The notes under the pieces: model-generated
Database searches by the model: none
Told to the model about the DNA's origin: nothing
The model's input: only the letters and a program-made list of their open reading frames with translations
NCBI GenBank assembly: GCA_965216355.1
Contig: CBDCFR010000013.1
Span: forward strand, 588,883-652,882
Source of the DNA: Acidimicrobiales bacterium
GTDB taxonomy: Bacteria > Actinomycetota > Acidimicrobiia > Acidimicrobiales > SZUA-35
Direction of reading: 5' to 3'
Length of the DNA: 64,000 nucleotides
Part shown: positions 1-18,712 of the stretch, piece after piece
How the letters are laid out: every line of letters begins with the position of its first letter
Numbering within the stretch: the first letter of the stretch is position 1
Program-made: the position numbers and the translations under genes

Positions 1-674
1 TCGCATTGAAGAATTTCTTTCGGTCGCCAGTTGAGCGTTAGGAGACGATGATTCGATGAACCCGTTGTTCCATGGCTCGCCGGGAGGGATGAAGTAGATC
101 CCGATCCGGTCCTCACAGAACTCTGACACCGCTGCCGAAACAAGTCCGGGTCCGTTGTCACAGCGAAGCACCTTCGGCCCAACGCCTCGTTGTTCGATCA
201 CCCGGCTGATCTCGACGATCAGGCGGTCATCTGTGATCGACTAGTTGTAGTCCACGATGTTGAGTAGCGACTCGCGGGTGTACTCATCGATTATCGATGC
301 GATCTTGAACCGCCAGCCATCAACGGTTGCGTCATCTGGTGCCGTGGCCGTCGTGACTGGCGGGGAGGTCGAGGAACCGATGCGTTTGCGACGCCGCCGG
401 GTTGAAACCTGCAGTTTCTCTCGCACCGCCACAGCCGCTGACCCCGCTTCCGGTTGATCTCATGTCCTTCGTGACGAAGATCAGCCCACGCCCGACGGTG
501 GCCCTTACGATGATTCTCCGGGCGGGCCGCCCACATGCACGACCAGTCCCGCAACCACCGATCCGGGTCGAGGCGTTGGTGGCGTGGTGTTCGACGCTGA
601 GTTGAACGTGATTGACCGATCGCCCGGCAAGCGAAACGTTCAGAGCAGCCATGACGTTCCATCGCCATGATCAC
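1..674 (-). pseudogene. IS3-family transposase orfB (integrase core) with a frameshift and an in-frame stop
   Basis: Three consecutive minus-strand segments together read as one rve-type transposase. Segment 674..~430 contains ERHGCSERFACRAIGQSRSTQRR...HEINRKRGQRLWR. Segment 432..244 is in a different frame and ends ...DGWRFKIASIIDEYTRESLLNIVDYN at a TAG (243..241). The same frame then continues SITDDRLIVEISRVIEQRGVGPKVLRCDNGPGLVSAAVSEFCEDRIGIYFIPPGEPWNNGFIES to the window edge. Confidence 0.75.
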
Positions 675-697
675 CGCCCTTCGTATCGATGCCGGGC

Positions 698-988
698 CTA
701 GAATCTTCCCTCGGCCACATCCCGCAAGACGAGGTTCTCGAGCTCTTTGTCGGCCACCAAGCGTTTCGGCTTGGCGTTCTCCTCCCGAAGCCGGCGCAAC
801 TCCTTAGCGTCATCGACACTCATCACGCCGTACTGTTTGCGCCACGAGTAGTACGTCGGCGTGGAGACGTTCAACGCTCGTGCAATCTCATCAGCATTCT
901 TGCCCTGCGCTGCCAGCTCCTCAGCCTTACGGAGCTTACGGACAATCTGTTCAGGTGTGTGACGTGCACGTCGGGTATTGGCTATCAG
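698..988 (-). pseudogene. IS3-family transposase orfA (HTH_Tnp_1-like), no canonical start codon visible
   Basis: The minus frame is open from just after a TGA (1003..1001) to a TAG at 700..698. Its sequence is typical of IS3 orfA. The only candidate starts are CTG/ATA at 988/985, and the gene is missing from the ORF track because it has no ATG/GTG/TTG start. Confidence 0.65.
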
Positions 989-1236
989 CTTTCCACCCCA
1001 TCAACGGGGCATCAAGCCTCTACTCCACCGCGGCACCAACCACAGGGGTCACTCCACCATTACTACTCGTATCAAGACTGACGAAATGCTCGACGACAAG
1101 ACGCATGGAACACCTTCTTTGTCTGGGGGTTTGTATCAACATTGAGCAGCACCAAGCGGCACGGGGTAACCAACTAGTGTCGCAACTGCAACACTGATAT
1201 CGGATTTTGTGCGACGGTCGATCTTAAAGTGATTTC

Positions 1237-2787: not shown

Positions 2788-3612
2788 GCACGATTCCTTG
2801 CGGCAACCGGCTACTGATACTATGGTTTAATCACCAGAGAGAAGGCCCAAGTATCCGGTGTTAAAATCGTTCCTAAGAGATCAGCTGGTTCTCGATGAGC
2901 CTTATGACGGTCACTGCTTGCCGTCCCTTCGACAAATCGAGCGGGGTCGAGATGACGTGCGTACTAGTAGGGAGCGATACGCTCGCCTAGAGCGCATCTT
3001 TGGTCTAGATTCGTCGTGTCAATAATTCTGAGTTGACGGTAGTACGGTCGGAGACGATGCGGCTTACAGGACTTGATAGCTACCGCGTATTGATTGATCC
3101 CAATATGTGGACGTCGATGCTGACAGCATCGGCAGCGGATCGCCCTAGCTGTAGTGATCACCGAGGTTGTTGGCGTTGGGCAATCCGACCAAAAAGGCGC
3201 CGATTTGCTCGGGGCACGGCTGTTTAGCAGAACTGGGAGCCATTCTGCGAGCAATTTGTGGCGTAGCCGCCCGAACAGCTCTGGATGAGATCGCAGGTAC
3301 AAAGCCCGCTCGACGCCAGCCCGAACCGCTCCAGCATGCAGGCCGAGCAGGCTTCTTGCTTGATCTGACTTGTTTCCCGTATCGGACAGGTGTCGAGCAC
3401 GGTCTAGGTCAGTCGTGGCGGGCCGCAATGCACTGCGCTGCCCAACCGACGATTGAGTCGCGCTCCTTGTTGCAAACTTCGCTGTTCGAGCGGAATCCCG
3501 CACCAATTGTCACGACCCCTCATGGCTTCTGCTTGCCATAGTCGGGGTGGCGCTTAACCATCTTCCGGTGAGCTGAGCTACCTGCTCCAAGGGGGAGCTT
3601 CAGCATCACGCA

Positions 3613-6369
3613 ATGCATCCATCCGAGAAGAGGAAGACCGTGAGGGAACACCCACCGAACCGCAATTTGGCCAACCATCAGAATCCATCAGAGCATAGGA
3701 GGACGGGTCACCCTAGTACGTCACCCGCTAGCACAGGCCGCAGGGTGAGGCGCCGTTTCGGAGTGCTCGCTTTGGCCGCGGTCGCGCTCATTGCGGCGAC
3801 CATCCAGACGTCGGCGCCAGTCTCCGCAGCGGGCAACCAAACGAACACCGTGTGGTTCACCAACGCTGTGCCCGAGGTCAGTGCTACGGATGCTGCTATT
3901 GCCTACTGCGGTGGCCCCGGGCAGCCGAACTGCGCTGGCTCCTACGCTGCCGAGGTCTCGTGGGGCACCCAAGATCGAAGCGGCTTGCTCTATAACCCGA
4001 GCGCGTCATCGACGAGCGGTAGTCAGTTTCAAGTCGGCACGCTCACACATCGCAATCGGGTCGTCGGCCTGACCGAAGCGATTACCAAGGTGACCTTCAA
4101 CATCAATCTGAACTACACCGACACAACCCGCAACGTGTCGATAAGCACCTCGGGTAGCGCAGGCCTCAAGGTCAACGAGACCTCGAATCTGCTCACGCAA
4201 TGCCCGTTTGCTCACGGATTTGGGCCCAACTGTCCCGATCGGATCGAACTCACGGCGCCCTATCTGAATGCAACCAAGAGCGCCGGCAACGTGCTGTATC
4301 GCCTCGACAACCTGATGTTCCGCGATCCAAGGTCCAACGAGATCAAGCAATACATGACAACGAAGGAAGGCGAGCAAACTGCCACCGCCCTCTACGCCGA
4401 CCTGACGAGGGAGTATCTGGTTGTTGCCGATGCCGGGCCCGATCAGACGGTTGACGAACGAACTGCGGTTCAACTCGACGGCAGCGGCAGCAGAGTCACG
4501 GGGCTCCTCTACAAGTGGACGCAGACGGGAGGGCCTGCGGTCGTTCTCTCTGATGACACAGCGGTCCGCCCAACGTTTGACGCACCCGAGTTGACCGAGT
4601 CAGCCAGCGTCACTTTCCAACTCGAGGTTCGGGACAAGATTGAGCCGAACCATCCCGAGATGCGAAAAACGGACGACGTCACCATCAACATCATTGACAT
4701 CAACGATCCTCCTGTAGTCGACGCCGGTGGGCCGTATACGGTGCCTGAAGGCTCCACGGTCGATCTCGATGAGGCGACCGCCTTCGATCCAGACGGCGAC
4801 GATCTCATCATCCAGTGGACCCCGGAAACGCAGCTCACCAACGCCGATCAAATCCACCCCACGTTCAAGGGCATCGATGACGCCGTCGACACGCTCACCG
4901 TCACGGTGACGGACCCGTTCGGCGAACAAGACTCGGCGCAGACCCAGGTAACCACTACCAACGTCGCGCCCGCCACCGATCTCGGCGCCGACGAGATCAT
5001 CAACGAAAACGACGTGTTCCAACGTTCCGGGCTCACCTATTTCGATCCGGGGCTGTTGGACACCCACAGCGCCACGGTCGACTATGGCGATGGGTCGGGT
5101 GAGCAAGAGCTCACGCTGCAACCGATCGATTCGGAAACGGGTATCGGCAGCTTCGAACTGTCTCACCGCTACATCGACGATGACCCGTCGGGCACACCGT
5201 CGGACACCTACACCATCACCGTGACGATCGAGGATGACGACCTCGGATCTACTACCGAGACGCTCAACGTCACCGTCAACAACCTCGACCCTACCACCGA
5301 GGCCGGCGACGCCGAGACCATCGACGAAGGTCAAACCTTCAGCCGCAACCTAAGCTTCGACGACATCGGAACCGCCGACACCCACACCGTCACCGTCGAC
5401 TATGGAGAAGGCGCCGGGTTTGAAGCAGCGACCGTCGACCAAGCTGGCAAGGCATACGTGCTGAGTCACCTGTACGCCGACGATGACCCCACCGCCACAC
5501 CTCAAGACGACTACACCATCATGGTGCGAGTCGAGGACGACGACGGGGGAGTAGCCGAGGACGAGATCCTTTTGACGGTCCGAGACGTAGCGCCAGATAT
5601 CGAGATCACCGGTCCGGCCCTCGATGGCGACCTGTTCGCCGCCCCGGCAACCATCAACCTCACGGCGCCGTTCACCGATCCCGGTGTTAGGGACACATTC
5701 ACCTGCTCAATCGAGTGGGATGAGGCGCCCGCCACCAATGAACCGACACCGCCGCCCACCGAATTCACGGCGCCCTTCTCGGGGACCGAAGGCAACTGCG
5801 ATGCCACCAACGTCTTCGAGAACGCCGGCGTGTACAGCATCAAGGTCACGGTCACCGACGATGACACGCTGTTCGACGTGGCTGAACGCACCATCGTTGT
5901 CTACGATCCCAGCGCCGGCTTTGTAACCGGTGGTGGCTACTACCAATCACCGCCCGGTGCCTACAGGCCCGACCCCGCTGCGACGGGCAAAGCACACTTC
6001 GCCTTCGTCAGCCAATACCGAAAGGGTAGCCCTGAGGGGCAGACCGAGTTCCAGTTCCAGGCTGGCGACCTCAACTTCCATTCCGAGTCCTATGAATGGC
6101 TGGTGGTAACCGGCAACGCAACCAGAGCCCAATACAAGGGTGAAGGGACGATCAACGGTGAATCGGGCTTCGGGTTCATGCTCACCGCCTATGACGTGGC
6201 AAAGACTGGCGCCGGCAATGACAAGATCCGGATGAAGATCTGGGATACGACAACCGACGAGGTCATCTACGACAACCGCCTGGACCAGCCCGACGACGTC
6301 GATCAGGCCGACCCGCAGATCATCGAGAGCGGGAGCATCTTCATTCACACCAAGGGCGGCAAACAGTGA
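3613..6369 (+). CDS. large secreted protein with tandem PKD/cadherin-like repeats
   Basis: It has a signal-like segment RRRFGVLALAAVALIAATIQTSAPVSAAG. PKD-type modules are present (VADAGPDQTVDERTAVQLDGSGS; NDPPVVDAGGPYTVPEGSTVDLDEATAFDPDGDDL). Repeated units include HSATVDYGDGSG...LSHRYIDDDPSGTPSDTYTITVTIEDDD and HTVTVDYGEGAG...LSHLYADDDPTATPQDDYTIMVRVEDDD. The real start may be the in-frame GTG at 3745. Confidence 0.85.
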   Translation: MHPSEKRKTVREHPPNRNLANHQNPSEHRRTGHPSTSPASTGRRVRRRFGVLALAAVALIAATIQTSAPVSAAGNQTNTVWFTNAVPEVSATDAAIAYCGGPGQPNCAGSYAAEVSWGTQDRSGLLYNPSASSTSGSQFQVGTLTHRNRVVGLTEAITKVTFNINLNYTDTTRNVSISTSGSAGLKVNETSNLLTQCPFAHGFGPNCPDRIELTAPYLNATKSAGNVLYRLDNLMFRDPRSNEIKQYMTTKEGEQTATALYADLTREYLVVADAGPDQTVDERTAVQLDGSGSRVTGLLYKWTQTGGPAVVLSDDTAVRPTFDAPELTESASVTFQLEVRDKIEPNHPEMRKTDDVTINIIDINDPPVVDAGGPYTVPEGSTVDLDEATAFDPDGDDLIIQWTPETQLTNADQIHPTFKGIDDAVDTLTVTVTDPFGEQDSAQTQVTTTNVAPATDLGADEIINENDVFQRSGLTYFDPGLLDTHSATVDYGDGSGEQELTLQPIDSETGIGSFELSHRYIDDDPSGTPSDTYTITVTIEDDDLGSTTETLNVTVNNLDPTTEAGDAETIDEGQTFSRNLSFDDIGTADTHTVTVDYGEGAGFEAATVDQAGKAYVLSHLYADDDPTATPQDDYTIMVRVEDDDGGVAEDEILLTVRDVAPDIEITGPALDGDLFAAPATINLTAPFTDPGVRDTFTCSIEWDEAPATNEPTPPPTEFTAPFSGTEGNCDATNVFENAGVYSIKVTVTDDDTLFDVAERTIVVYDPSAGFVTGGGYYQSPPGAYRPDPAATGKAHFAFVSQYRKGSPEGQTEFQFQAGDLNFHSESYEWLVVTGNATRAQYKGEGTINGESGFGFMLTAYDVAKTGAGNDKIRMKIWDTTTDEVIYDNRLDQPDDVDQADPQIIESGSIFIHTKGGKQ

Positions 6370-7295
6370 AAGACCGCCGCATCACTCGGCTGATGCGGCT
6401 GGTGCTGGCCGTGGTGCTGCTGGCGATCGTCTCGACGACGGTCACCGGCGGCGCTGCGGCTGACGCCGCCAAGTCGCAGAGTATGAAGGTGGTGTCGATC
6501 GGTGACTCGTTCATCGCCGGCAACGGCAACACCAACTACTACGACGGTCAAGGACCCGGCCAGCTTGACATCGGCGGGCCCCGAGTTCCCTCAGAGGGGC
6601 GCAATTGCTACCAGAGCTACTCTTCCTATCCGTGGCAGTACGTTCAGATGCTCAACGACAACGGCATATCGGCTGATATCTGGCACGCCGGCTGCGGGGG
6701 AGCGTGGACGTACGATCTGCTACCTCAGTGGGAGACGGTGCCGGGTGACTGGCGGCGTGGTGCCGACATCGTGTTGATCTCGGCCGGGGGCAATGATGCA
6801 GGTTTCGCCGACATTGTGCAGGCCTGCCTCATGTCGGTTCCGCTGACCCACACCACCTGCGACGGGGCGCTGGATCGGGCCGAGGCCGAGATCCCGGCGA
6901 TCTTGGGTCGAGTAGGTGCGGCGATTCGCCAGATCCGCCGCGACAACCGGTCGGCTCACATCGCCATCGTCGGCTACCCGTGGTTGGCGTCACCGTCCAA
7001 GCAGCGCTGCATCTCACGAGGTGAGGAGACGCTGTCTCAAGTCCAGTGGCAACACGACGCCGGCCTCATCGATTTGGCACTCGTGCTCACCGAGGAGTTT
7101 GGCGACGCTGCCTTTACTCCGGTGATTGTCAGCAGCCGCTTCGCCGGTCAGGGTCCCTGTGCATGGACCGATCCGTTACTGCACGACTACTTGGCGGCCG
7201 AGGGTGAGGCGTTTCATCCGAACTGGTCGGGAGCGCATCGCTACGCGGAGATCATTTTCGACCACGATATTCACCAACGGGCTATGGAGGGCTGA
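6366..7295 (+). CDS. secreted SGNH/GDSL-family hydrolase (lipase/esterase)
   Basis: It has an N-terminal signal (LVLAVVLLAIVSTTVTGGAAADA). The SGNH blocks are block I VVSIGDSFIAGNG, block III LISAGGNDAGF and block V FHPNWSGAH. Its GTG start overlaps the stop of the PKD gene (GTGA at 6366-6369). Confidence 0.85.
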   Translation: MKDRRITRLMRLVLAVVLLAIVSTTVTGGAAADAAKSQSMKVVSIGDSFIAGNGNTNYYDGQGPGQLDIGGPRVPSEGRNCYQSYSSYPWQYVQMLNDNGISADIWHAGCGGAWTYDLLPQWETVPGDWRRGADIVLISAGGNDAGFADIVQACLMSVPLTHTTCDGALDRAEAEIPAILGRVGAAIRQIRRDNRSAHIAIVGYPWLASPSKQRCISRGEETLSQVQWQHDAGLIDLALVLTEEFGDAAFTPVIVSSRFAGQGPCAWTDPLLHDYLAAEGEAFHPNWSGAHRYAEIIFDHDIHQRAMEG

Positions 7296-7308: not shown

Positions 7309-8688
7309 CTAGGCACACGCGGCGTCCGGGCCGGGCGCGAAATCACCGATCGCCCAGCCCGGCGCCTCGTAGTCGAGCACTACCGAATCTCCCCCGAGAC
7401 AGTTCCAAACCCCGCCGTCAGGAATCCAATGTCTGACGCCCTCCTCAATCCACCATGCCGTACCGTCACTTGAGCGAATTATGCCGTTATCAAAGTCTCC
7501 GAGTTCACGGATATAGGCATCGATCCGAGCTTGTTCAATGGCCGTCAGCTTTCCCTGCAGGGGTTCCCCCTCCGAGATTGTGCCCCGCTCGTACTCTTGA
7601 TATGGCCCGCCCTCGCTGTAGCGAACCTTCGTCATAGGTATTCCTAGCTCGCCGGTAGGTCCACCAGACTCCTCCCAAACCGAGGCGGCGGCTGCTGGAA
7701 TCCAAAAGGCCGGCCCAGTCGCGCTATGAGCGACTATCAAGTCTCCCTTCGATAGGCGAAGGACCTGATGATCCGCCATCGTTTCGACGCCGACTGGTAG
7801 CCCAGCCTGTGCCTGTAGACGACCATCGATCTCGTTGCGGTAAGCTTCCCCGACTGCAAACTGAACTAGATACGCCTTGTCGAGATCGGATCCGCCGACG
7901 AGGTAGCTACGAGGATGAACCTCGCCCCCAATAAACAACTGGAGCCAAAGTTCTTCCCAGCGTTGCGTGTTCTGGGCAGGACAGCCGAGCGCTGATCGGC
8001 CACCCTGCGCCAGGTATTCGTCAAACATCATTTCGGCGAGGTCGGCTGTCATTTCCAGAGGTACTGAAGCCCCGGCAATCGGTCGGTCGCAGTTCTCAAT
8101 CGGGAATCCGATGTGGGCCTGTTGGGGCGTTGCTCGCGTGCTCAGCAAACCGGCTAAGAGCAGCGCTAGAAGGGCGGTACCGACCAGAGCTCCTAATCCG
8201 AGCCATCCTGTGCGAGATGGGGTTGGTGTCGACGCAGGGCTATCGTTCGTGAGGGCTTCGGCTACACGCAGAAGCAGACGATCGTGGTGGCTGAGACCGT
8301 CCTTCGTCTTCCTGTCTCGAAACGTGTTGTAGCTGCCGATACCCAGCGCCGTGGCGGCATCTGTCGAGCGTGCTTTGTAGGTTCGATTCCAACGCTCATC
8401 CGAAGACCCAAGGAGAAAGGCCGCTGCCTCGGAGTACGGCGAGTCGAGAGACTCGTATGCTCCCTTGGTGAGGGAATGGACTGCGTCTGGACTTGTTCCT
8501 TCGGCCAAGCTGGCGAGAAGCGGGAGTTGTTCGATGTCGAACATGCCGGGCGCCCGTAGCTTGGCAAGAGTCTCAAGCTCTTGGCGTAGTCGATCGGATC
8601 GGGTGAGATCCGGTTGTGTTGTTCTCGATTTCCTAGCGCGTCTACTCCAAAGACGGGATGCTAGGGAATCGACCATATAGGCATCCAT
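7309..8688 (-). CDS. single-pass membrane protein with LGFP-like extracytoplasmic repeats (hypothetical)
   Basis: A 459-aa ORF with a central TM helix (WLGLGALVGTALLALLLAGLL). The C-terminal part has LGFP-repeat-like segments (GRSALGCPAQNTQRWEELWLQLFIGGEV; GGPTGELGIPMTKVRYSEGGPYQEYERGTI). Confidence 0.7.
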   Translation of the reverse strand: MDAYMVDSLASRLWSRRARKSRTTQPDLTRSDRLRQELETLAKLRAPGMFDIEQLPLLASLAEGTSPDAVHSLTKGAYESLDSPYSEAAAFLLGSSDERWNRTYKARSTDAATALGIGSYNTFRDRKTKDGLSHHDRLLLRVAEALTNDSPASTPTPSRTGWLGLGALVGTALLALLLAGLLSTRATPQQAHIGFPIENCDRPIAGASVPLEMTADLAEMMFDEYLAQGGRSALGCPAQNTQRWEELWLQLFIGGEVHPRSYLVGGSDLDKAYLVQFAVGEAYRNEIDGRLQAQAGLPVGVETMADHQVLRLSKGDLIVAHSATGPAFWIPAAAASVWEESGGPTGELGIPMTKVRYSEGGPYQEYERGTISEGEPLQGKLTAIEQARIDAYIRELGDFDNGIIRSSDGTAWWIEEGVRHWIPDGGVWNCLGGDSVVLDYEAPGWAIGDFAPGPDAACA

Positions 8689-8875: not shown

Positions 8876-9583
8876 TCATGCCGCCTCCTCGGACCAACCC
8901 TCGACTGGCGGGAGTACCTGGCGAAGGCGTTGCGCCCCTGGGCGCCGCTGCATGTCGGGCTCGTTGAGCCGTTGCCACGCCTCCTCCAGGGTGAACAGGT
9001 CGCGCTCGAAACAGTCGTTGAGAATGCGCTGCAGCTCACCGCCCCGGATGTCGGCGGCGATGTCGATCACCGTGCGAAGAGCGGTGGTACACGGAATACC
9101 GCGGATCTCGGTCTTGTCGCTCTCGGGAATATCGTCGAAGTGCACGATGACTTCCTGCCCATCGTCGAGCACCAGCCGAGCAGTGGGGCAACCGTTGCTA
9201 TCGACCCCGAGCGGCTCCAAATCGGGAATCGGTTCAGTGGCGTTACGCCCAATCACCACCTCAATAGGTGTGGTTGGCGCCGGGGACGATTGGACACGCC
9301 ACTCCAGATCCGGATCGAACTCGTCGAACCGGCAACCACACTCGCTGACAGGATTGAGGCACAGCGGACAGGCCTGAACATCACACTCAAGATGGTGAAG
9401 GCCACCGACCGCAACGCCACAGTCGGGGCATCGCCCCCACTGGCCCGACAACCCCGGACTCAACGGCCACCACGGTTCGTCGCCGGCCCGAACCATCTCG
9501 ATCACGTGGTCTCCGACATGAAGCGCCGCGACCGTGCACGAACGGCTCTCCAACATACTTTCACCGCACCAGAGGCACTTCAT
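8876..9583 (-). CDS. Cys-rich (three CxxC) protein with a C-terminal region resembling the N-terminal part of AbiEi/DUF559-type proteins
   Basis: The ORF runs up to 9790, but ATG 9583 is preceded by GGAGG at good spacing. The N-terminus is MKCLWCG...CPDCG...CPLC...CGC. The C-terminus is IRGIPCTTALRTVIDIAADIRGGELQRILNDCFERDLFTLEEAWQRLNEPDMQRRPGAQRLRQVL. Confidence 0.6.
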   Translation of the reverse strand: MKCLWCGESMLESRSCTVAALHVGDHVIEMVRAGDEPWWPLSPGLSGQWGRCPDCGVAVGGLHHLECDVQACPLCLNPVSECGCRFDEFDPDLEWRVQSSPAPTTPIEVVIGRNATEPIPDLEPLGVDSNGCPTARLVLDDGQEVIVHFDDIPESDKTEIRGIPCTTALRTVIDIAADIRGGELQRILNDCFERDLFTLEEAWQRLNEPDMQRRPGAQRLRQVLPPVEGWSEEAA

Positions 9584-9824
9584 GTGCGCACCTCCGCCCG
9601 AACCACAAAGTCGGCCGAGCTGACCGCTCGCAACTTGAAATGAAGCACATTGCCTCCTGAGAATCTTGAGGCCCAACCTTCGGGGCCGAGATATGGAGGA
9701 AGCCTTGGCTTCGAAACCCAGGAGCACGGTGCGCTTCTGTTCTTTCATCATGGCGATGGCCTGTGACAGGCAGCCGAGCGCGCCCACCACCCGTCGAGCT
9801 CAACCAAGCGAGCCCTTCAGCCTC

Positions 9825-10700
9825 CTATGCCGAAGCCGGGCGAGCGGTTGCCCACTCCACGCTCTCCCGTTCGCCCTGCAGGTAGGCGAGAAGGTCGCCG
9901 ATGGTCGGATCGCACTCGTCACGGCACATCACCCAGGCCATGAGACTGCTCGCCACCCGGCCGAGCAGGTCGGCCAGACTTTCATCGTCGGGCACGACCC
10001 CCAGCATCCGGTCGACCTGCAGCCCCTGCGACATCAGCGAGATGGCGGTCACGAAATCCGTTGGCGGCATATGAGGATCGGTCATCCGAATTCGCATCCG
10101 ACCGTACTGCCCCGACTCCATCGTCTTCAGCGCCTCCAGCGACGCCTCCAGCTCAACGCGGCGGAACTCACGCAGCGCAGCGACCGCCGCATCCCCGCCC
10201 CAATCGGTGTGACACAGCCACGTCACCAGATGGCAACCCCGAGCCGTGCGGGCATAGATATCCATGATGTTCACCGCCATGAGCTGCAGCCGAGTGGTGA
10301 GATCCTGCTCGTACTGGAGCAACGTCTGCCGCGCCCCCTCGTTGAATCGCTGGAGAAAGTCGGCCCGGTCGAGTTCCAGCACCTCAATGAAGATGGCGTA
10401 CCTCGCCTCCTCCAGCCGCTGCTTGAAGAACAGGGAAAGATCTTTCTCTGAAAACGCCCCCGGCACCCAACGATTGCGGCCACTCGGGTCACCCGACTCC
10501 CCGACCGCAGCCAACCGCATCTTGACCGACTGTTCGCCGGGCGGGAATTCCTGGCCCCGTCGCCCTTGTCTCTGCAAGCCCAGTACCGGGTAATCATCGG
10601 CGAGCAAAAGAGCGGCGAAAGCTCGAATAATGTCCTGATCCTTGAGGCGAAATCTATCAATGGTCTTGTATGTGGTTCTGGCGAGCATCCTTAACTCCAT
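9825..10700 (-). CDS. hypothetical protein (no recognisable family)
   Basis: A 291-aa ORF directly upstream of, and co-oriented with, 8876..9583. The composition is protein-like and there is an SD-like GGAG before the alternative ATG at 10688. It contains one Rx5H string (RTARGCH), which is too weak to call HEPN. Confidence 0.6.
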   Translation of the reverse strand: MELRMLARTTYKTIDRFRLKDQDIIRAFAALLLADDYPVLGLQRQGRRGQEFPPGEQSVKMRLAAVGESGDPSGRNRWVPGAFSEKDLSLFFKQRLEEARYAIFIEVLELDRADFLQRFNEGARQTLLQYEQDLTTRLQLMAVNIMDIYARTARGCHLVTWLCHTDWGGDAAVAALREFRRVELEASLEALKTMESGQYGRMRIRMTDPHMPPTDFVTAISLMSQGLQVDRMLGVVPDDESLADLLGRVASSLMAWVMCRDECDPTIGDLLAYLQGERESVEWATARPASA

Positions 10701-11006
10701 CCTTCCTGCTGGTTGAGGGTGCGTATGTGGTTGGTGATTCGCCGTTGAAAGACCAGATCGTACGTTGAGTGTCCCTTTTGGTTTGTGACTAGACGCCGCA
10801 GCGTTCCAACAACAGTACTAGCCACTGATCAGCGAATAAGGAGCAGTCTTCGCCAAAAAGTGTCGGCAAGACTCACGCCGCCTCCATAAGACTGTGACGC
10901 AAGTTGATTCGAGGGCATGCATCGCCAAGAGGCGGACATTCCATCGGTAAATATCAAAATTCGAACGACACCACTATCTATCGATCGTTCTCGAAGGGGT
11001 GACACA

Positions 11007-12314
11007 ATGTTGATTCATTCATTTCTTGATTTCCTTTCTCAACCATTTGGCGCATTCGGGTCCCTCTGCATCATGACGGCCATTACGGTGATCAACAGCC
11101 AACGGCTTACAAGTCGTTTGGCCTCAACCGGCGCACCCGTTGGTCTGATCTTCAACGTGGTATCGCTGCTTGGCGCTATCTCGCTGCTTATCAACGCCGT
11201 GGTCCGAGACGAGATCGTCTGGGTCATCCTTGAGGTATACGTTGGTGCCGTCGCCATCAAAGGAATCCGGCAGGCCATAGAGGGCGAGGAACCAACGCCA
11301 ACCGATGGGCTCGACAATCCGCCGCCACCGGTCCCTCCACCCGGCCTGACCTCACCCACTGTTCCCACCGCCCCTGTCGGTCCCTTGCCACTCCATCCGC
11401 CGACGACGACTGCGCTACGGCTAGGACGCGGTCGGCAGAGGGCGTTAGTTGTGGTCCCGGGACTGTCGTTGGACGCAAACGGAGCCTGGGCTTCCGCTGC
11501 GTACAGCTCGCTCCGTCGGGGATTTGAGCATCTTGTCGAGACCGACCCCAACCTACGTGTCCACCTGATCGAACACGGCGACGCCGCCACCCAAGTAGTG
11601 CCGTCGGTCAAAACGTTGTGCGAGAGGATCGATGCCGAACTCGCCGCCCTCCGACGAACCGGTATTGATGAGGTGGTGCTGGTCGGGTTCTCACTTGGAG
11701 CGCACGGCGTCTTCACCTATCTCAACAACATCGATCGCCGCCCGTCGCTGTCGTGGCTGGCGATCAACCCGGTATCAGCCGCCGACATGCTCTGCGGAAT
11801 GTTGGGTCTGGCCACGCCGGGTGAAGACGGTCGCCAGCCTGATCCACTCCATGCTGTGGCCTCATGGTGGGCTTCCAAAGACCGTGGGCACGGTCTTGAC
11901 GCTGTGGTCGATCTCAGCCTGGGCGCCGACATCGTCCTCCCTGTATCGGCCTCCACCATCGCCTCCTACCTGCCTGGCCCGCTTGGCGTGCAAGGGTGCA
12001 CCATCGACCCCATCGGCGACCTGCTTGACGCCATGGTCAGACTCGAAGCCGGCAGCCTCGGCCTGACGGCTTGCCCAGGATGGACCTACGGATTTCCGCG
12101 CTCACCGGGCCGAGTGATCCTCGCCCGACGAGATCGACTCGTCGATCCCATCTACCGCCGGCTCGGTGTCGACGCCGACACTATTGGCTCCGCCCTCGAT
12201 GCCATCGGCATTCCAAACGTTGTCATCAACAGTGACCACAACCTCTCCGACCTGGCCCCTGATGCGGTCGCCGGTCTCGTCCGCCGCTCCACCTCGGTGC
12301 CCCAACTGGTCTGA
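11007..12314 (+). CDS. membrane-anchored alpha/beta-hydrolase-fold protein
   Basis: Start ATG 11007 is preceded by AAGGGG; the ORF extends upstream to 10917. It has N-terminal TM helices, a Pro-rich linker (PPPPVPPPGLTSPTVPTAPVGPLPLHPP), then a nucleophile elbow VVLVGFSLGAHG (GxSxG). Confidence 0.7.
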   Translation: MLIHSFLDFLSQPFGAFGSLCIMTAITVINSQRLTSRLASTGAPVGLIFNVVSLLGAISLLINAVVRDEIVWVILEVYVGAVAIKGIRQAIEGEEPTPTDGLDNPPPPVPPPGLTSPTVPTAPVGPLPLHPPTTTALRLGRGRQRALVVVPGLSLDANGAWASAAYSSLRRGFEHLVETDPNLRVHLIEHGDAATQVVPSVKTLCERIDAELAALRRTGIDEVVLVGFSLGAHGVFTYLNNIDRRPSLSWLAINPVSAADMLCGMLGLATPGEDGRQPDPLHAVASWWASKDRGHGLDAVVDLSLGADIVLPVSASTIASYLPGPLGVQGCTIDPIGDLLDAMVRLEAGSLGLTACPGWTYGFPRSPGRVILARRDRLVDPIYRRLGVDADTIGSALDAIGIPNVVINSDHNLSDLAPDAVAGLVRRSTSVPQLV

Positions 12315-12430
12315 CCGACGCGCCGCTGCTTGGAGGGAGCGGCGCAATCAGTCGGTCGGTCAGTGGGTACCGGGGTCGGAGCGGACCAAGGCGCACGTCG
12401 ACTACCTGCACACCTTCGTAGAATGAGCGT

Positions 12431-13444
12431 GTGACCTCGGCGCCCACCCCAACCCCACACGAGTTGTCGGTTCCCGTCATCGACCTGGCCGCGACCGCCG
12501 GCGCGTCGAGCGTCGATGAGGTGGCCGATGCCGCCACAAACTTCGGCTTCTTCCAGGTGGTCAATCACGGCTTGCCCGACGAGTTGGTCGAGCGGGTCTG
12601 GAGCCAAACCGAAGCATTCTTCGCCATGCCGATGGACGCGAAACGGGCGCTCAACCGCTCCAAGGACAACACCCGCGGCTACTACGACCGGGAGCTCACC
12701 AAAAACCGTCGAGACCTAAAAGAGGTGCTCGACCTCGCCCACGTGCCCTATCCCGATGCCGCCGATGACGACCCTCGCAACTTCCACGCCGTCGACGGCG
12801 TAAACCAGTGGCCCGACCTCGATGCGTTCCGCAGCACGATGATCGAATACCTCGCCGCCTGCGAGAACCTCGCGCTTCGCCTGCTGGCCATGTTCAGCGA
12901 AGCGCTGGGTGAGGCGCCCGATCGACTCCACCGCCACTTCGGGCCCGACCACACCAGTTTCGTTCGACTCAACTACTACCCCACATCCGATCCGCTGACC
13001 GCCGAAGAGGCGTCCGCCCCCGACGTCACACCTCTAGGCGACATGGCCCTCCACCATCACTCCGACGCCGGCGCGATGACGCTGCTGTTGCAGGATCAGG
13101 TCGGTGGACTGCAGGTTTTGGTCGGCGACACGTGGATTGACGTCGAGCCGATTCCCGGCGCCATCGTGGTCAACTTCGGCGACATGATGCAGGTGTGGTC
13201 CAACGACCGGTTCAAGGCCGCTCTGCACCGAGTAGCGCCCCGGACCACGCAAGCCCGCTACTCGTTGCCGTACTTCTTCAACCCGTCGTACAACACCGAC
13301 TACGCGCCACTACCCGGTGCCGTCGCCGCCGGTGAGCAGCCGCACTACCGCACTATCAACTGGGGCGACTTCCGCCAAGCGCGGGCCGACGGCGACTTCG
13401 CCGACTACGGCCACGAGATTCAGATCGCCGACTTCAGACTGTAA
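12431..13444 (+). CDS. 2-oxoglutarate/Fe(II)-dependent oxygenase (isopenicillin-N-synthase-like family)
   Basis: It has the N-terminal DIOX_N signature NFGFFQVVNHGLPDELV...FFAMPMDAK. The catalytic core reads HHHSDAGAMTLLLQDQVGGLQV...WIDVEPIPGAIVVNFGDMMQVWSNDRFKAALHRV (HxD...H plus RxS-type region). Confidence 0.9.
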   Translation: MTSAPTPTPHELSVPVIDLAATAGASSVDEVADAATNFGFFQVVNHGLPDELVERVWSQTEAFFAMPMDAKRALNRSKDNTRGYYDRELTKNRRDLKEVLDLAHVPYPDAADDDPRNFHAVDGVNQWPDLDAFRSTMIEYLAACENLALRLLAMFSEALGEAPDRLHRHFGPDHTSFVRLNYYPTSDPLTAEEASAPDVTPLGDMALHHHSDAGAMTLLLQDQVGGLQVLVGDTWIDVEPIPGAIVVNFGDMMQVWSNDRFKAALHRVAPRTTQARYSLPYFFNPSYNTDYAPLPGAVAAGEQPHYRTINWGDFRQARADGDFADYGHEIQIADFRL

Positions 13445-13489
13445 GCCTCGCCGTAAACCCTCACCGCAAACCTCGCCGCAACCCCGCAG

Positions 13490-14686
13490 GTGGGCATCGA
13501 CCCGAAGCCGAACCTGTACCTTGAGTCGGTGCAGTCGCCGTTACGGGTTGTCTCCCTTCTTCGACCGAACGTCCGCATCGCCATCGTGGTGGCGGTGGTG
13601 GTCACCACGTTCGTGTTTACGGCGACCCCGTTTCTCATCGATTTGGTGGCCGACGAGTACGGCTACGGGCTGACGATCACCTCGCTGGTCAGCACGGGTC
13701 AGTTGCTCGGGTTTGCCGTCGGATCCTTCGGCGCCGGGCGTCGACTCCACCCGACCAAGTCGCTGTTCGTGGCCGCGTCCACCCTCCTGGTAGTGGCCAA
13801 CACCTTCTCCGCCCTCGTGCCCCCGTTTGCCGTTCTCGTGGCCCTGCGAGTTGCCGCCGGACTAGGTATGGGAATCGTCAGTTGGTTGGGTTGGTCGCTC
13901 GTGATGGGGCACACCCGACGCACCGCCGAGATGTCGATGCTCGGACCGCTGGCCGGGATCATCGCCAGCCCCCTCATAGCACCACTCGCGGAGATCGGCA
14001 TCGGCCAGGTCTACGGTTTCCTCGCCGCCCTCGCGCTCGCCCAGGCGGCGGCGCCGATCATCCTCCCGCAGACGCTTGACAAGCTGCCCGACTTCAACCC
14101 CAACGCCAACGGCGCTGCCAACGGCTCGGCCCCAGCCACCAAGTCCTCCGCCCCCGCAGCCCGCCAAGCCGTCATCATCCTCGCCGCCCTCGGCGTGTTC
14201 ACCGCGGGGGGTTCGTCGGTGTTTGTGTTCACCGCCTTGATCGGCGCTGACCTCGGCGTCTCCCTGGGCGCAATCTCGATCGCCTACAGCGTCAACTCCA
14301 TCGCCGGCGTAATCGGTGCTCGCTGGCCATTCAACCGAGGTCCCGCCGGCGCCGGAATCATCGCCACCGGAATCGTCGCCGTCCTCACGATCAGCCTCGG
14401 TTCCAAGCTGCTGCTACTCGCCGGCATCATCACCTGGGGCCTCTTCTTCTGGATCGGTATGCCCGCCGCGCTCAACCTCCTGGCCGAGCGATCACGCTTC
14501 CCCGAAGAGCGAGCCGGGGATGCTCAGGCGATCATGGCGTTCGGACGAGTGGTCGGCCCGTTCGTGGGCGGAGCGCTACTCGATCTCGGCGGCCCCGGAC
14601 CGCTCGGCATCATCGGCGGGGCGGCCATCATCGGGGCTGGGCTGACGATCCTCGGCGTCAGCCGCGCTCCGAACCCGATCGGCTAA
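13490..14686 (+). CDS. MFS-type transporter
   Basis: A 398-aa protein with about 12 hydrophobic segments arranged as two halves separated by a polar loop (PDFNPNANGAANGSAPATKSSAPAARQ). It has an MFS loop-like GAGRRLHPTKS after TM2. Confidence 0.8.
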   Translation: MGIDPKPNLYLESVQSPLRVVSLLRPNVRIAIVVAVVVTTFVFTATPFLIDLVADEYGYGLTITSLVSTGQLLGFAVGSFGAGRRLHPTKSLFVAASTLLVVANTFSALVPPFAVLVALRVAAGLGMGIVSWLGWSLVMGHTRRTAEMSMLGPLAGIIASPLIAPLAEIGIGQVYGFLAALALAQAAAPIILPQTLDKLPDFNPNANGAANGSAPATKSSAPAARQAVIILAALGVFTAGGSSVFVFTALIGADLGVSLGAISIAYSVNSIAGVIGARWPFNRGPAGAGIIATGIVAVLTISLGSKLLLLAGIITWGLFFWIGMPAALNLLAERSRFPEERAGDAQAIMAFGRVVGPFVGGALLDLGGPGPLGIIGGAAIIGAGLTILGVSRAPNPIG

Positions 14687-14826
14687 AGACCCGCAAAAAT
14701 TTCTGCACTGAGCGTACCGTTCCCGGCTTCGGCGGCGTCTCTTCCTGGAGCGGACGACACAGCGTGGTGGTTGAAACGTCCGCCATCAAACATATTCAGT
14801 GGCAATCAGAAATTCGGAGGGAACCT

Positions 14827-15564
14827 ATGAGCCACAATACCGACCTAGTCGGGCTGCTTTACGCGCCCCTCGTGACCGAGGCACGAGAACAATACACCTC
14901 GACACCGGCATGGAAACGCTTGACCGATCCTCAAGCAACTCCAGCGTTCATCGACCGATTCCTCATCGAGTTCTGCTCGATGGGCGTGCAGATGACCGAA
15001 CCGGTGGACCGCTGGATCAGATCCGCCGGCTGGCGGTGCCGCGAACTCGGCCTCGATGATCTCGGCCAGGCACTCATCCGTCACGCCGACCACGAAGCCG
15101 GTCACCATCACATGATGATCAACGACACGAAGGCATTGGTCGACGTGTGGAACAGCACCCATCGCCGTGATACAGGAGTGGAACTGCACGTCGACGAGCT
15201 GCTCGACCGCGCTCCCACGCCGGGGTGCGAGGCCTACATCAAGCTCCACGAGGAGACGATCGCGTCCACCGCCCCGTGGGGGCAGCTGGGGATCGAGTAT
15301 GAGATCGAGCGTCTGTCGATCACGGCAGGCCCCACCATCATGGCCAACGTCGCCGCGATATGTGGTCCGGAACGAGTGCAGTCGCTCTCATTCCTCACCG
15401 ACCACATCGCGCTTGACGAAGGCCATACGGTGTTCAACCGTCGTCAACTCAATGAGCTGCTGGCCGAATATCCCGAGATGGTCGAGGATCTTGGTCGATG
15501 CGGATCCGAAGCGCTTGACACCCACGGGCGATTCATCTCCGACTGCGTGGAGGCCGCGTTATGA
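14827..15564 (+). CDS. heme-oxygenase-like di-iron oxidase/oxygenase family protein (iron-containing redox enzyme family)
   Basis: ATG 14827 is preceded by GGAGGG; the ORF extends upstream to 14764. The sequence looks all-helical with spaced carboxylate/His ligand motifs (HADHEAGHHH; EYEIERL; HIALDEGH), as in HDO/Haem_oxygenase_2-type enzymes. Confidence 0.6.
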   Translation: MSHNTDLVGLLYAPLVTEAREQYTSTPAWKRLTDPQATPAFIDRFLIEFCSMGVQMTEPVDRWIRSAGWRCRELGLDDLGQALIRHADHEAGHHHMMINDTKALVDVWNSTHRRDTGVELHVDELLDRAPTPGCEAYIKLHEETIASTAPWGQLGIEYEIERLSITAGPTIMANVAAICGPERVQSLSFLTDHIALDEGHTVFNRRQLNELLAEYPEMVEDLGRCGSEALDTHGRFISDCVEAAL

Positions 15565-16115
15565 CCATCGAAATCAGACTGGCCGCCAACGATCGCGAGC
15601 TGCGGGAAGCCTTCGCGCTTCGCCACCGCACGTTTGTAGGCGAGGGCATCCTGCATCGCGAAAACGGCACCGACTCACTCCTGTTCGACGTGTTCGACGC
15701 CCTGCCGACCTCGCACGTGTTTGTAGCGGTCCTCGACAAAACCGTCATCGGCACGGTCCGAGTTTCGGTGCACACCGATCAACCGTCGCCGGCCGACGAG
15801 TTCGACGTGCCCGCGCACGCCCTTCCCGCCGGGGTTACGGTCGGGTCCGGTTCGATGTTATGCGTCGACAGCGCTTACCGAACCGGGACGATCGGGCTTC
15901 GGTTGGTAAAGGCCGGCATGAAGTTCGTGCATCGCCAAGGCACCAGCTACGCCCTGGCTGCGATCCGCCCCGAAGCCGTTCCACTGTTTGAGCAGCTCGA
16001 CTGGTATCAGATCGCTGACGCCTACGTGCACGAGATCGAGAACGTGCCCGTGGTACCGATGGCGATCGACCTCGACGCCCATTTCACCAGCCAATACACG
16101 ACCCTGGGCCGATGA
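15561..16115 (+). CDS. GNAT-fold acyltransferase resembling N-acyl amino acid synthase / autoinducer-synthase-like (Acetyltransf_5) proteins
   Basis: It overlaps the previous gene by ATGA. The N-terminus is RELREAFALRHRTFVGEGILHRENGTDSLLFDVFD...HVFVAVLDKTVIGTVRV, followed by ML CVDSAYRTGTIGLRLV. This matches the pattern of the FeeM/OlsB-like GNAT subfamily. Confidence 0.6.
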   Translation: MTIEIRLAANDRELREAFALRHRTFVGEGILHRENGTDSLLFDVFDALPTSHVFVAVLDKTVIGTVRVSVHTDQPSPADEFDVPAHALPAGVTVGSGSMLCVDSAYRTGTIGLRLVKAGMKFVHRQGTSYALAAIRPEAVPLFEQLDWYQIADAYVHEIENVPVVPMAIDLDAHFTSQYTTLGR

Positions 16116-16150: not shown

Positions 16151-18712
16151 TTATCCGCGCCCAAATAGAGAGAATCCTGATGCCAGCGTCCACCTCTGTT
16201 TATCCGACTCGCCGACAGCAGCTGCCCAAGCCGTGCTCGGCGGGTCACCCCGGCGGTGGCGGACGTGGAAGTCGGCCATCAGATCTGTGAGGGTCGCAGT
16301 GTCCGGCACAGGCACCGCGGCCGCCAGCACGGTGCCAACCCCGGCGTTGAGCAGAGCGGTTACGAGTCCGAGTGTCTGGTTGCCGTCAGCACCACCGGTT
16401 TCGCCAACATCACAGGCCGACAGAACCAACAGCTTCGGCGGCGTCGTGAGACTCTGCAACTCGTATACGTCGAGGCTTCGGTCGTAAAACTGCAAGCTCG
16501 AAAACATGGGGCTTTCGGGCTGGGCGATGCCATGAGTGGCGAGGTGGGCAACATCAACTTCGTTGAGCGCGGCCAAGACCTTTTCGGCAGTGGCGTCTCG
16601 ACCGGCCAAAACTATGTCGTCGGGGATCGCCAATGACTCCACCTCGAGAGATGCTGTTTCGGTCGCGGGGCCACTGGCCATCAAGCGGCGGTGACGTTGC
16701 GGCCCGACCTGTGCGGTGTCGCCGCCGTCGACCCATGCGGTTAGGCTCGTGGCCGTTGTAGTGGAGTGGTTGGGCTTCGACGGGCAGCGACTTGGCAAGG
16801 ACGCGAACGGAAGCGCGAACAGATCGGGAGGTGGCACGATAACCACGTCGACTCCGTCGACTCCCAGCGGTTCGAAAATGATCTGATCAAGTCGCTCCAG
16901 CTCCGCCAGCACGCGGTCGGGGCGGACCCCGGAGGCGTCCTGAGCCCATCGTCGCTGGGCTTGTCGCAATGCTCGTACCCGCCGCTCCACGTAGTCGATC
17001 GGCCCAAGATCCACCCGCGCTACCGATCCAGCCTCGAACCGGCAGACCGTTAACTGGTCGTCGACTCGCCCCATCACGAGTCCAACTCGGTCGCCTAACG
17101 CCTCGCTGAGTCGGTCGACGCTGGCTTGCGTCGGAGCCCGGTGCCCTCTTTGGCTTGCCAACGTCTTGCTCTGGATGAGATCCTCCAGCTGTTGGCGGTC
17201 AGCGCGGCTAAGCCCCCGCGAGCGCAGACGGGTTCGCGCCGAAGTTAGATCAGCCTGAGCAGGGACTTGGGCCGGCCGGGGGAACGTTGTGACCAGGGCG
17301 ATTCGCTCAAACCACTCAAACAGGTTCAACGGCGACTGCGTGTTGGCACTGGCGGCAACCGTCAAGTCGGCCAGCCGCCGGGCGTGGCGATGGATACCGG
17401 TTCTGATCTCAGGAGAGCCGACCGCGGCCTGGGATTCCAACACCGCTTCGAAACCCGAATCCGCAGTGCGCAACAGCCCTTCCGCATCGCCCTTGGCGGA
17501 CATCACCTCTGCTGATGCGGTTGCGATGGCGAGGCGCTGGCTGACCGCATCGACGGCAAACGTATCGTTCGTACGTTGCAGCTCGGTCTCAGCTTCCTTG
17601 ATATCTCCTTGTCGGGCCAACACCCGGACCTTCAACAATCGGGCCTCCAGCTGGTGTTGATCCATTCCTGCGGCATCCAATCGTGGAAGCAGCGAATCCA
17701 ATTCGGAAAGTTCCGGCACAACACCCATGTCGAATTGCGCACGGAGCTGGATTAGCCGGGCCACGTCATCCCAGCCCCTTCGGCCCTGCTGCCGGAACGC
17801 ATCAGCCGATTGACGACCTCGGGACACGGCGAGTTCGTACTGCGCCACCTCAAGCCACGCGGCCGCGGCGATGACAAGCGTTTCGGCAGCGTCGGCCTTC
17901 ATCCCGGCCTCGATGCACTGAACTGCCGCCTCGTCGGCAATCCTGGCCGCTTCGCTGAACATGCCGGCTCTCATCAGAGCATCGCAGTAGCTTCGTTTGA
18001 ATTCGAAGTCGCTGTCGGTTCGGTTTACGAGTTCGACGCTGCTTTCGTTGAACAGCTGAAAGGCCTCAGGCAGCTGGTCGGACTTGGCCGCCGCGATAGC
18101 CAGGTTGAGTTTCACCCACGCGGAGTCGATGGCGTTTCCCATCGCGACGTACAGCTCAAGGGCGCGACTGAAGTGAACCGTTGCCGAGATGTGATCGTCG
18201 CGTTGGGCCGCCATCATCCCGGCGGAACGTTCAACCATTGCCAACAGCACGTCGTCGCCTTCGGCGAGCGCGGTGTGTCGGGCTTGATCGAATTTGTTCT
18301 GAGCCTCCTCGGTCGCCCCTGACCGGGCCAAGATCAAGCCATGCTGGTAGCCGACTCGCCCGGCCAAGGACTTGTCGTCGCCGGCGTCGATCGATGTGAT
18401 GACCTCCAGTGCGGCCGAGGTGTCGCCGCCCAAGAAGAGATTGTATGCGTGGGTCATTTGAGCCTCGGCCAACCTCGCTGCGGAGCCTGATTGTGAGGCT
18501 GCATCGACGGCCTGGCGGGAGAGCTCGGTCGCCCTCTCGGGTTTGGCTGCAACTCGGGCGGCCAAGCTTGCATGGCGTAGAACGCCGGCCCGGACCTCTG
18601 GATCCGCCTGGGCGTCCGGATGGCCTAGGTAGTCATCCAGCGACGACAGAGCGGCCGTCGGCGATGCTTCGTAGGCAGCCTGAAACCTCGCAACCAGACC
18701 GATCCCATCCAT
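16151..18712 (-). CDS. TPR-repeat CHAT-domain (caspase-like) protease
   Basis: An 853-aa protein. The N-terminal ~500 aa is helical-repeat (TPR-like). The C-terminal CHAT domain has a His/Cys dyad context (VAHLATHGIAQPESP ... KLLVLSACDVGE) and the tail LGLVTALLNAGVGTVLAAAVPVPD. Confidence 0.85.
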   Translation of the reverse strand: MDGIGLVARFQAAYEASPTAALSSLDDYLGHPDAQADPEVRAGVLRHASLAARVAAKPERATELSRQAVDAASQSGSAARLAEAQMTHAYNLFLGGDTSAALEVITSIDAGDDKSLAGRVGYQHGLILARSGATEEAQNKFDQARHTALAEGDDVLLAMVERSAGMMAAQRDDHISATVHFSRALELYVAMGNAIDSAWVKLNLAIAAAKSDQLPEAFQLFNESSVELVNRTDSDFEFKRSYCDALMRAGMFSEAARIADEAAVQCIEAGMKADAAETLVIAAAAWLEVAQYELAVSRGRQSADAFRQQGRRGWDDVARLIQLRAQFDMGVVPELSELDSLLPRLDAAGMDQHQLEARLLKVRVLARQGDIKEAETELQRTNDTFAVDAVSQRLAIATASAEVMSAKGDAEGLLRTADSGFEAVLESQAAVGSPEIRTGIHRHARRLADLTVAASANTQSPLNLFEWFERIALVTTFPRPAQVPAQADLTSARTRLRSRGLSRADRQQLEDLIQSKTLASQRGHRAPTQASVDRLSEALGDRVGLVMGRVDDQLTVCRFEAGSVARVDLGPIDYVERRVRALRQAQRRWAQDASGVRPDRVLAELERLDQIIFEPLGVDGVDVVIVPPPDLFALPFASLPSRCPSKPNHSTTTATSLTAWVDGGDTAQVGPQRHRRLMASGPATETASLEVESLAIPDDIVLAGRDATAEKVLAALNEVDVAHLATHGIAQPESPMFSSLQFYDRSLDVYELQSLTTPPKLLVLSACDVGETGGADGNQTLGLVTALLNAGVGTVLAAAVPVPDTATLTDLMADFHVRHRRGDPPSTAWAAAVGESDKQRWTLASGFSLFGRG

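Follow-up and report, generated by a model that had tools for sequence, protein, structure and literature searches.

Heme-oxygenase-like di-metal oxidases/oxygenases (HDOs) form a fast-growing superfamily of unusual chemistry, which includes olefin, alkyne, nitrile, N-nitroso and nitro formation; published sequence-similarity networks of it comprise ~9,600 and 19,778 sequences (PMC7848743, PMC13185094). Their canonical site consists of three His and three Glu/Asp residues on three core helices (PMC13185094, PMC7848743); in MboA, the ligands are Glu86, His89, Glu143, His172, Asp176 and His181 (PMC13185094). The substrate carboxylate is often an extra ligand of Fe1, as described for UndA, AetD, HrmI, PolF and MboA, and the substrate of MboA is an N-acylated (peptidyl) C-terminal amino acid that is bound via its carboxylate (PMC13185094). 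N-oxygenating HDOs of the SznF/RohS type possess a seventh carboxylate on a turn-interrupted auxiliary helix, aux alpha2 (PMC7848743). O2-dependent oxidases of another type accompany N-acyl amino acid synthases (NAS). In the tyz cluster of M. tuberculosis, the NAS TyzA is found with the O2-dependent desaturase TyzC and the ThiF-like cyclase TyzB (PMC12479983). The tyz, stieleriacine, kyonggic-acid and thalassotalic-acid clusters follow one logic: in operons whose genes are tightly spaced or overlap, a NAS supplies the N-acyl amino acid on which an O2-dependent oxidase then acts (PMC12479983). Here, we analysed a 64,000-nt stretch of an Acidimicrobiales genome (contig CBDCFR010000013.1), hereafter the window, to whose positions all coordinates refer unless another locus is named. 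We report that it encodes an HDO together with a FeeM/LuxI-like GNAT N-acyltransferase, and that the two constitute a conserved module which probably makes an oxidised N-acyl small molecule.

The HDO gene (14827-15564, + strand, 245 aa) and the GNAT gene (15561-16115, + strand, 184 aa) are the two core genes of the locus. They overlap by 4 nt, the ATG of the GNAT gene and the TGA stop of the HDO gene being merged in an ATGA, and are translationally coupled through this overlap. The HDO open reading frame (ORF) is listed from a GTG at 14764, but its true start is almost certainly the ATG at 14827, to judge from the sequence, since a GGAGG lies 7 nt upstream and this is also where the aligned homologs and the 245-aa database protein P0001 start. 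In the ORF list of the window, the pair closes a run of four co-oriented + strand ORFs at 12431-16115. The first encodes a DOXC/IPNS-type 2-oxoglutarate (2OG)/Fe(II) oxygenase (12431-13444, 337 aa) and the second a major facilitator superfamily (MFS) transporter (13490-14686, 398 aa), with 45 nt between these two genes and 140 nt between the transporter and the HDO genes.

The AlphaFold2 (AF2) model of the HDO, based on an alignment, has a pLDDT of 96.4. Foldseek places it in the heme-oxygenase-like fold with a probability of 1.00 to 3dde, CADD, UndA and AetD, and with TM-scores to these structures of about 0.5-0.79. PDB entry 3dde is the best match (0.74-0.79), followed by CADD (~0.70), UndA (0.66-0.68) and then AetD, TenA and heme oxygenases. 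As modelled, the protein thus displays the seven-helix heme-oxygenase-like fold. It contains the motifs HADHEAGHHH, IEYEIERL and HIALDEGH, and the ligand set E90-x2-H93, E157 and H193-x3-D197-x2-H200 sits on predicted helices 77-90/93-111, 152-166 and 188-214. Across 117 homologs, E90, H93, E157, H193 and H200 are found in 117/117 and D197 in 116/117. At the sequence level, the canonical 3-His/3-Glu-Asp di-metal ligand set is predicted to be complete in the HDO, and its spacing is that of known HDOs, in the arrangement reported for MboA, UndA and SznF (PMC13185094, PMC7848743). H86, D100, H141/E142, E159 and E161 are also essentially invariant.

UndA (1-undecene synthase), BesC, AetD and MboA (mangotoxin acetylenase) share with the window HDO the helical fold and, when their published ligand lists rather than residue-level alignments to UndA, CADD or SznF are compared, the same E-x2-H / E / H-x3-D-x2-H layout, as in MboA. 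They differ from it by the absence of any match at the sequence level, by the extra invariant residues given above and by their partners, which are ATP-grasp ligases or none, whereas the window HDO is partnered by a FeeM-type GNAT. Searches of the PDB with the single HDO sequence and with its profile returned only a His-tag artefact and a weak match to 3dde (profile E=0.086). The latter, Sden_3740 from Shewanella denitrificans, was solved by structural genomics and has HEAGH and H-x3-D-x2-H in common with the HDO in the profile alignment, but it is 18% identical and is itself a heme-oxygenase-like DUF of unknown function, so that no function can be transferred from it. The family comprises ~130 word-indexed homologs, and an exhaustive search of 1.84 billion representatives yielded 516 at E<=1e-3, including 232 at E<=1e-30.

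The GNAT protein matches Pfam FeeM (PF21926) over the entire profile (positions 1-158/158, 2.3e-20, 73.4 bits for a cut-off of 27). It shares this full-length match, and the format of a small stand-alone GNAT, with FeeM (2g0b), NasY and TyzA. Its AF2 model (pLDDT 86) finds its best full-length fold match in FeeM 2g0b (query-normalised TM-score of 0.77), then in TofI (0.74) and in BjaI and LasI (0.71), while ordinary GNATs cover just its core (TMq 0.58-0.68). Identity to FeeM is however ~16%, and the clade of the window protein has its own invariant C-terminal motif, H157/E160/P166-M167. The GNAT is accordingly classed as a relative of FeeM-family N-acyl amino acid synthases and not as a LuxI member, with an N-acyltransferase activity that is predicted from sequence and model. 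Membership in a Nit1C-type cluster was considered and rejected, NCBIfam giving only a partial, sub-threshold match of the GNAT to MSMEG_0567_GNAT (50 bits for a cut-off of 68).

A first-pass annotation of this DNA had described the four genes as a compact pathway, and most of its structural statements stand. The ORF coordinates bear out its co-oriented, closely spaced genes and the ATGA overlap of the last two; Pfam, motifs and fold agree with the domains it assigned (2OG, MFS, HDO and GNAT). Its six-ligand site is present in the HDO in a check made at the sequence level. Its placing of the GNAT with FeeM/LuxI-type synthases and not with ordinary acetyltransferases is upheld by Pfam, by the family profile and by the fold. 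As it had stated, there is no non-ribosomal peptide synthetase, polyketide synthase or ribosomally synthesised and post-translationally modified peptide core at the locus.

What unites the HDO and the GNAT is their genomic association. In a neighbourhood survey of HDO homologs covering 80 genome loci, a FeeM-type GNAT adjoins the HDO in 13/13 Acidimicrobiales/Actinomycetota loci, usually 6-100 nt apart, and the adjacency is also seen in loci L081 to L086. FeeM/Acetyltransf_5-type partners flank the HDO in Cyanobacteria, Bryobacteraceae, Egibacteraceae and one metagenome-assembled genome (MAG) of Deltaproteobacteria, and hhalign shows these partners to be homologs of the window GNAT (probability 98.4%, E=5e-15). 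The pair is present in Acidobacteriota as well. Moreover, the two domains are fused in a single HDO::GNAT polypeptide in three Acidobacteriaceae MAGs (L059, L071 and L073); the exhaustive search added further fusions in this order (P0245, P0246 and P0269) and others in the reverse FeeM-HDO order (P0321, P0253 and P0250). Of 201 sampled genomes of the order, 2 encode the HDO, and GNAT matches at E<=1e-59 are confined to these same 2. On the HDO tree, GNAT partnership is found on both sides of the midpoint root and in basal branches of the half that contains Myxococcota. No third gene recurs: in a Pfam tally of 21 paired loci, at most 4/115 flanking ORFs share a family. The conserved unit is the two-gene HDO-GNAT module, and not the four genes. 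A larger version of the module is observed in Acidobacteriota (L089 858-10811), where two HDO genes and a FeeM-like GNAT are found with a T_hemolysin-family protein, an SDR and a MacB-type ABC exporter.

We consider it reasonably likely that this translationally coupled module makes an oxidised N-acyl small molecule, with the GNAT acting first. In this scheme, the GNAT would join an activated acyl group, carried by ACP or CoA, to an amino acid or related amine through an amide bond. The HDO would then use its His3/carboxylate3 di-metal site and O2 to oxidise this amide: the N-acyl amino acid may bind to the metal site through its free carboxylate and be desaturated, decarboxylated or hydroxylated, to give a small oxidised, lipo-amino-acid-like N-acyl metabolite. 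In this genome, export would probably fall to the upstream MFS transporter, and the 2OG oxygenase may oxidise the product once more. The order of the two core steps is favoured by the ligation of the substrate carboxylate in many HDOs (UndA, AetD, HrmI, PolF and MboA) and by the action of MboA on an N-acylated C-terminal residue. It is also favoured by precedent, since the only NAS-plus-oxidase systems that have been characterised, TyzA/TyzC and the stieleriacine-type clusters, run that way. TyzA/TyzC is the closest functional analogue of the HDO-GNAT module. This is an analogy and not a homology, as the oxidase of tyz-type clusters belongs to the flavin-containing nitroreductase superfamily and that of the window is a candidate di-iron HDO. 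The locus itself is not a tyz/NasY-type N-acyl-dehydrotyrosine cluster: it has a NAS-like gene, but a Pfam scan of the ORFs between 7309 and 20250 detected neither a nitroreductase nor a ThiF domain.

Several points weigh against this interpretation. First, the window HDO stays below threshold on Pfam Haem_oxygenas_2 (PF14518; 17.0 bits for a cut-off of 28.9, E=0.005), so that Pfam alone is insufficient for an HDO call; the assignment rests on fold, motifs and family analysis. Some members of the HDO family have precomputed PF14518 matches, and a divergent partner in L130 exceeds the cut-off. Second, the 140-nt gap before the HDO gene leaves co-transcription with the 2OG and MFS genes unproven. 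Third, substrate, product and step order are all inferred, for the HDO clade as for the GNAT clade. Fourth, most Myxococcota orthologs of the HDO (44-47% identity) occur without a GNAT, their partner being a PilZ-containing protein of 560-760 aa (loci L012-L066), which is sometimes fused to the HDO (P0300 and P0244, 811-824 aa); the substrate of an HDO of this family therefore need not come from a dedicated NAS. Fifth, in L131 (3428-6282), a related FeeM::cNMP-binding fusion adjoins not an HDO but a flavin N-monooxygenase of FMO/Lys_Orn_oxgnase type, from which it is divergently oriented. Finally, sequence and predicted helices reveal in the HDO an interrupted auxiliary helix with conserved acidic residues that resembles a feature of N-oxygenase-type HDOs. 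The helix breaks at E58-P59 in the AF2 model, within a highly conserved T57-E58-P59-V60-D/E61 segment ~30 residues before the first ligand; E58 is conserved in 88% and D/E61 in 97% of the 117 homologs.

This last feature favours a reverse order of reactions, in which the HDO, like SznF, RohS and HrmI, would first N-oxygenate or otherwise transform a free amino acid or amine. The GNAT would then acylate the new and possibly labile product, and the MFS transporter would export the result; a hydroxylamine, for instance, would become a hydroxamate-type or N-acyloxy compound. The helix break resembles aux alpha2 of N-oxygenating HDOs in position and character (PMC7848743), HDO orthologs of Myxococcota work without a GNAT, and the fusions would fit the channelling of an unstable intermediate. 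The neighbourhood of the FeeM::cNMP-binding protein in L131 points in the same direction: hydroxamate pathways combine an N-hydroxylase and an acyltransferase, a logic that this arrangement echoes. Nevertheless, 13/117 members carry Arg, Gln or Ala at position 58, Arg being found in GNAT-paired ones, which argues that E58 is not an obligatory ligand. The FeeM/LuxI fold, moreover, is known for acylating the alpha-amino groups of amino acids or S-adenosylmethionine (SAM), and not hydroxylamines. We regard the reverse order, the main alternative to the GNAT-first order that we prefer, as unlikely.

Some observations were made on the loci just mentioned. The PilZ-containing partner of Myxococcota is otherwise of unknown fold, with a FAD_binding_3 monooxygenase gene convergent downstream. 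A hidden GNAT domain was sought in the 720-760-aa partner and rejected (hhalign probability of 0.1-0.2% against both GNAT subtypes). One such HDO, with a 754-aa partner, comes from a record labelled Comamonas sp. KCTC 72670 (L057, BNCN01000016.1). Both proteins nest within Myxococcus on a short branch, beside Myxococcus sp. Y35, and the record is probably mislabelled or contaminated. In L130 (2652-5176), a FeeM domain is fused to cNMP_binding and HTH_Crp_2 and is preceded by a bona fide Haem_oxygenas_2 protein.

The status of the two upstream genes is a separate question. The 2OG oxygenase (DIOX_N 5.9e-26, 2OG-FeII_Oxy 4e-28) has the facial triad H210-x-D212...H266 and the 2OG-binding R276-x-S278. 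Its best PDB relatives are plant F6'H1, the bacterial 'iron/ascorbate oxidoreductase' 6jyv and an EFE-like protein (E ~1e-38), with IPNS at 1e-19; by its sequence, it is a complete DOXC/IPNS-class enzyme, and none of its close orthologs is characterised. The transporter matches MFS_1 (6e-13, 48.8 bits for a cut-off of 33.4), and a crude Kyte-Doolittle scan gives ~12 hydrophobic segments. The first-pass annotation had assembled these genes and the core pair into one minimal pathway. The HDO-GNAT half of this proposal is retained as a conserved module, but its claim that the four genes form a unit is not, since they are not co-conserved: the four-gene arrangement recurs in L081 only, at ~85% DNA identity. 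L082, whose HDO is 75% identical, has the HDO-GNAT pair without 2OG or MFS, and the four-gene arrangement is likewise absent from 21 further paired loci. Conversely, homologs of the 2OG protein number more than 2000, and hundreds share 62-72% identity with it. Its orthologs (63-68% identity) in five sampled genomes all occur without an HDO, with no MFS, HDO or GNAT gene within 5 kb and no conserved neighbour of any kind. MFS homologs (32-45% identity) are found in 15/200 genomes of the order that have no HDO, and the transporter is kept with the HDO-GNAT pair in L081 alone.

An obligate four-gene pathway, in which a single operon would supply both oxygenases for one exported product, therefore seems improbable to us. 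It would account for the co-orientation and close spacing of the genes, and for the whole block moving as a unit between this genome and L081 despite different downstream flanks. It would also fit the directly upstream position of an unrelated DIOX_N oxygenase (23% identity) next to a distant HDO-GNAT pair (42% identity) in L086. The genome studied here has only 7 DIOX_N genes, so that two independent adjacencies to HDO-GNAT pairs are unlikely to arise by chance; as a rough estimate, at most 0.1 chance adjacencies are expected across ~23 loci. Against it stand L082 and at least 20 other paired loci that lack both genes, the occurrence of 2OG orthologs and MFS homologs without the pair, and the closeness of L081, at this nucleotide identity, which prevents it from counting as independent conservation. 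The spacer between the MFS and HDO genes is a further argument against a single operon. Read directly, this AT-richer segment of 140 nt (14687-14826, + strand) ends with the Shine-Dalgarno sequence of the HDO gene, and a separate promoter for HDO-GNAT is possible. It has no Rfam match, and no consensus promoter or terminator appeared in a sigma-70 promoter/terminator scan, which was uninformative. Exporters, too, vary beside the pair: the window and L081 share one MFS, L083 has an unrelated one and L089 the MacB-type ABC transporter, all of them recruited independently in different lineages. The 2OG oxygenase and the MFS transporter are facultative accessories at best, recruited recently and in a lineage-specific manner. 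An accessory role in tailoring and export, respectively, is plausible because the pair has separately acquired unrelated 2OG oxygenases and exporters in other lineages.

The least convincing alternative, a LuxI-type quorum-sensing synthase in which the GNAT would use SAM to make an acyl-homoserine-lactone-like autoinducer, its acyl chain or lactone then being tailored by the HDO, is in our opinion very improbable: although the GNAT family profile (alignment A2) matches the CoA-dependent acyl-homoserine lactone synthases BjaI (4.5e-8) and MesI and, with weaker scores, RpaI and LasI, although the fold is shared with such enzymes and the N-terminal motif of LuxI (R-x3-F...D-x2-D) has its counterpart in R21-x3-F25 and D43-x2-D46 in that alignment, and although the L023 partner passes the Autoind_synth threshold (28.7 bits for a cut-off of 24) and LuxR/LAL, GGDEF-EAL, PilZ and cNMP-binding/Crp regulators recur beside or fused with the module, the window GNAT itself reaches only 16.1 bits on Autoind_synth (PF00765), over its 57 N-terminal residues 12-68, FeeM fits it far better in both Pfam and fold comparisons, the surroundings of the cluster in this window contain no LuxR-type receptor, and no regulatory neighbour is conserved across lineages.

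Concerning its genomic context, the four-gene cassette is horizontally mobile accessory DNA in a variable region anchored on a tRNA-Ile gene, as indicated by this anchor, an integrase, differing flanks and a prevalence of 1% in the order. The tRNA-Ile gene, which lies upstream of the window (G000:C13:583608-583682; L122 4726-4800), marks the start of synteny with L081. There (608-3764), it is followed by an intact tyrosine integrase (Phage_integrase) and an HTH_17 gene before the cassette. The genome studied here keeps just a 181-nt integrase-like remnant (79% identity), and has extra DNA between this remnant and the cassette. By blastn, the block common to both covers window positions 8876-10032 and 12276-16088, the first segment being 83.5% identical to L081 4020-5213. 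It is interrupted by a 2.2-kb insert (10032-12276) that is absent from L081. The downstream flanks also differ, that of L081 being absent from the present genome. A scan of the window for an attR repeat of the tRNA-Ile 3' end gave only chance matches of at most 13 nt.

The left part of the common block contains the 3' end of ORF 9825-10700 (- strand) and a Zn-ribbon/AbiEi-like ORF (8876-9790, - strand). The latter is Cys-rich and zinc-ribbon-like with an AbiEi-like C-terminal region (PADLOC AbiEi 1.8e-7), and is 80% identical to its L081 counterpart beside the integrase. It is typical mobile-element cargo and belongs to the context, outside the pathway; none of the four cassette proteins matches any defence system in PADLOC (0/4). 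The insert carries the 5' part of ORF 9825-10700 and a 465-aa ORF (10917-12314, + strand) with a proline-rich linker and no Pfam domain. In L081, the 2OG (5382-6405) and HDO (7847-8588) genes each align to the window protein as two fragments, with an overlap of a few bases or residues between them, which probably reflects frameshifts from a low-coverage ('2x') long-read contig, or else real pseudogenisation. Downstream of the cassette (16151-21387), a TPR-CHAT protease gene is convergent to the GNAT gene with a 35-nt gap, followed by a 452-aa ORF without Pfam domain, then by genes for an ECF-type sigma factor and a small acidic protein. In L002, too, a weak CHAT homolog is present ~5 kb from the pair, but no link of these genes to HDO-GNAT was found.

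The components of the module, and the NAS-plus-oxidase logic, are known. As far as found in the literature searched, coupling or fusion of an HDO with a NAS is undescribed: no paper names both HDO and FeeM, no characterised HDO-FeeM system or member of either clade was found, and no characterised NAS enzyme was found reported in a pairing or fusion with an HDO. For enzyme discovery, new HDO clades whose partner is defined rank among the best targets, and this clade is small (~500 sequence clusters) yet distributed across several phyla. Its tie to a lipo-amino-acid/autoinducer-type acyltransferase focuses the search for a substrate on N-acyl amino acids or the precursors of these. Genome mining should look for the HDO-GNAT module, as two genes or as a fusion, and not for the four-gene cluster.

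A signalling role of the product is suggested by the regulators that are found as neighbours or fusions of the module, recurrent though not conserved: GAF-GGDEF-EAL, LAL-LuxR, FeeM::cNMP-binding::Crp-HTH and PilZ partners. On this basis, one may speculate, and we hold it to be rather unlikely, that the HDO and its FeeM/LuxI-fold partner represent an undescribed class of O2-dependent acyl-amide signal synthases feeding second-messenger or LuxR-type regulation, mobilised here on a tRNA-Ile island together with an exporter and a 2OG oxygenase. If the product is an oxidised N-acyl amino acid, the module would provide a second, non-homologous route to modified lipo-amino acids resembling those of the tyz and stieleriacine clusters, and this product might be a new family of bacterial signals.

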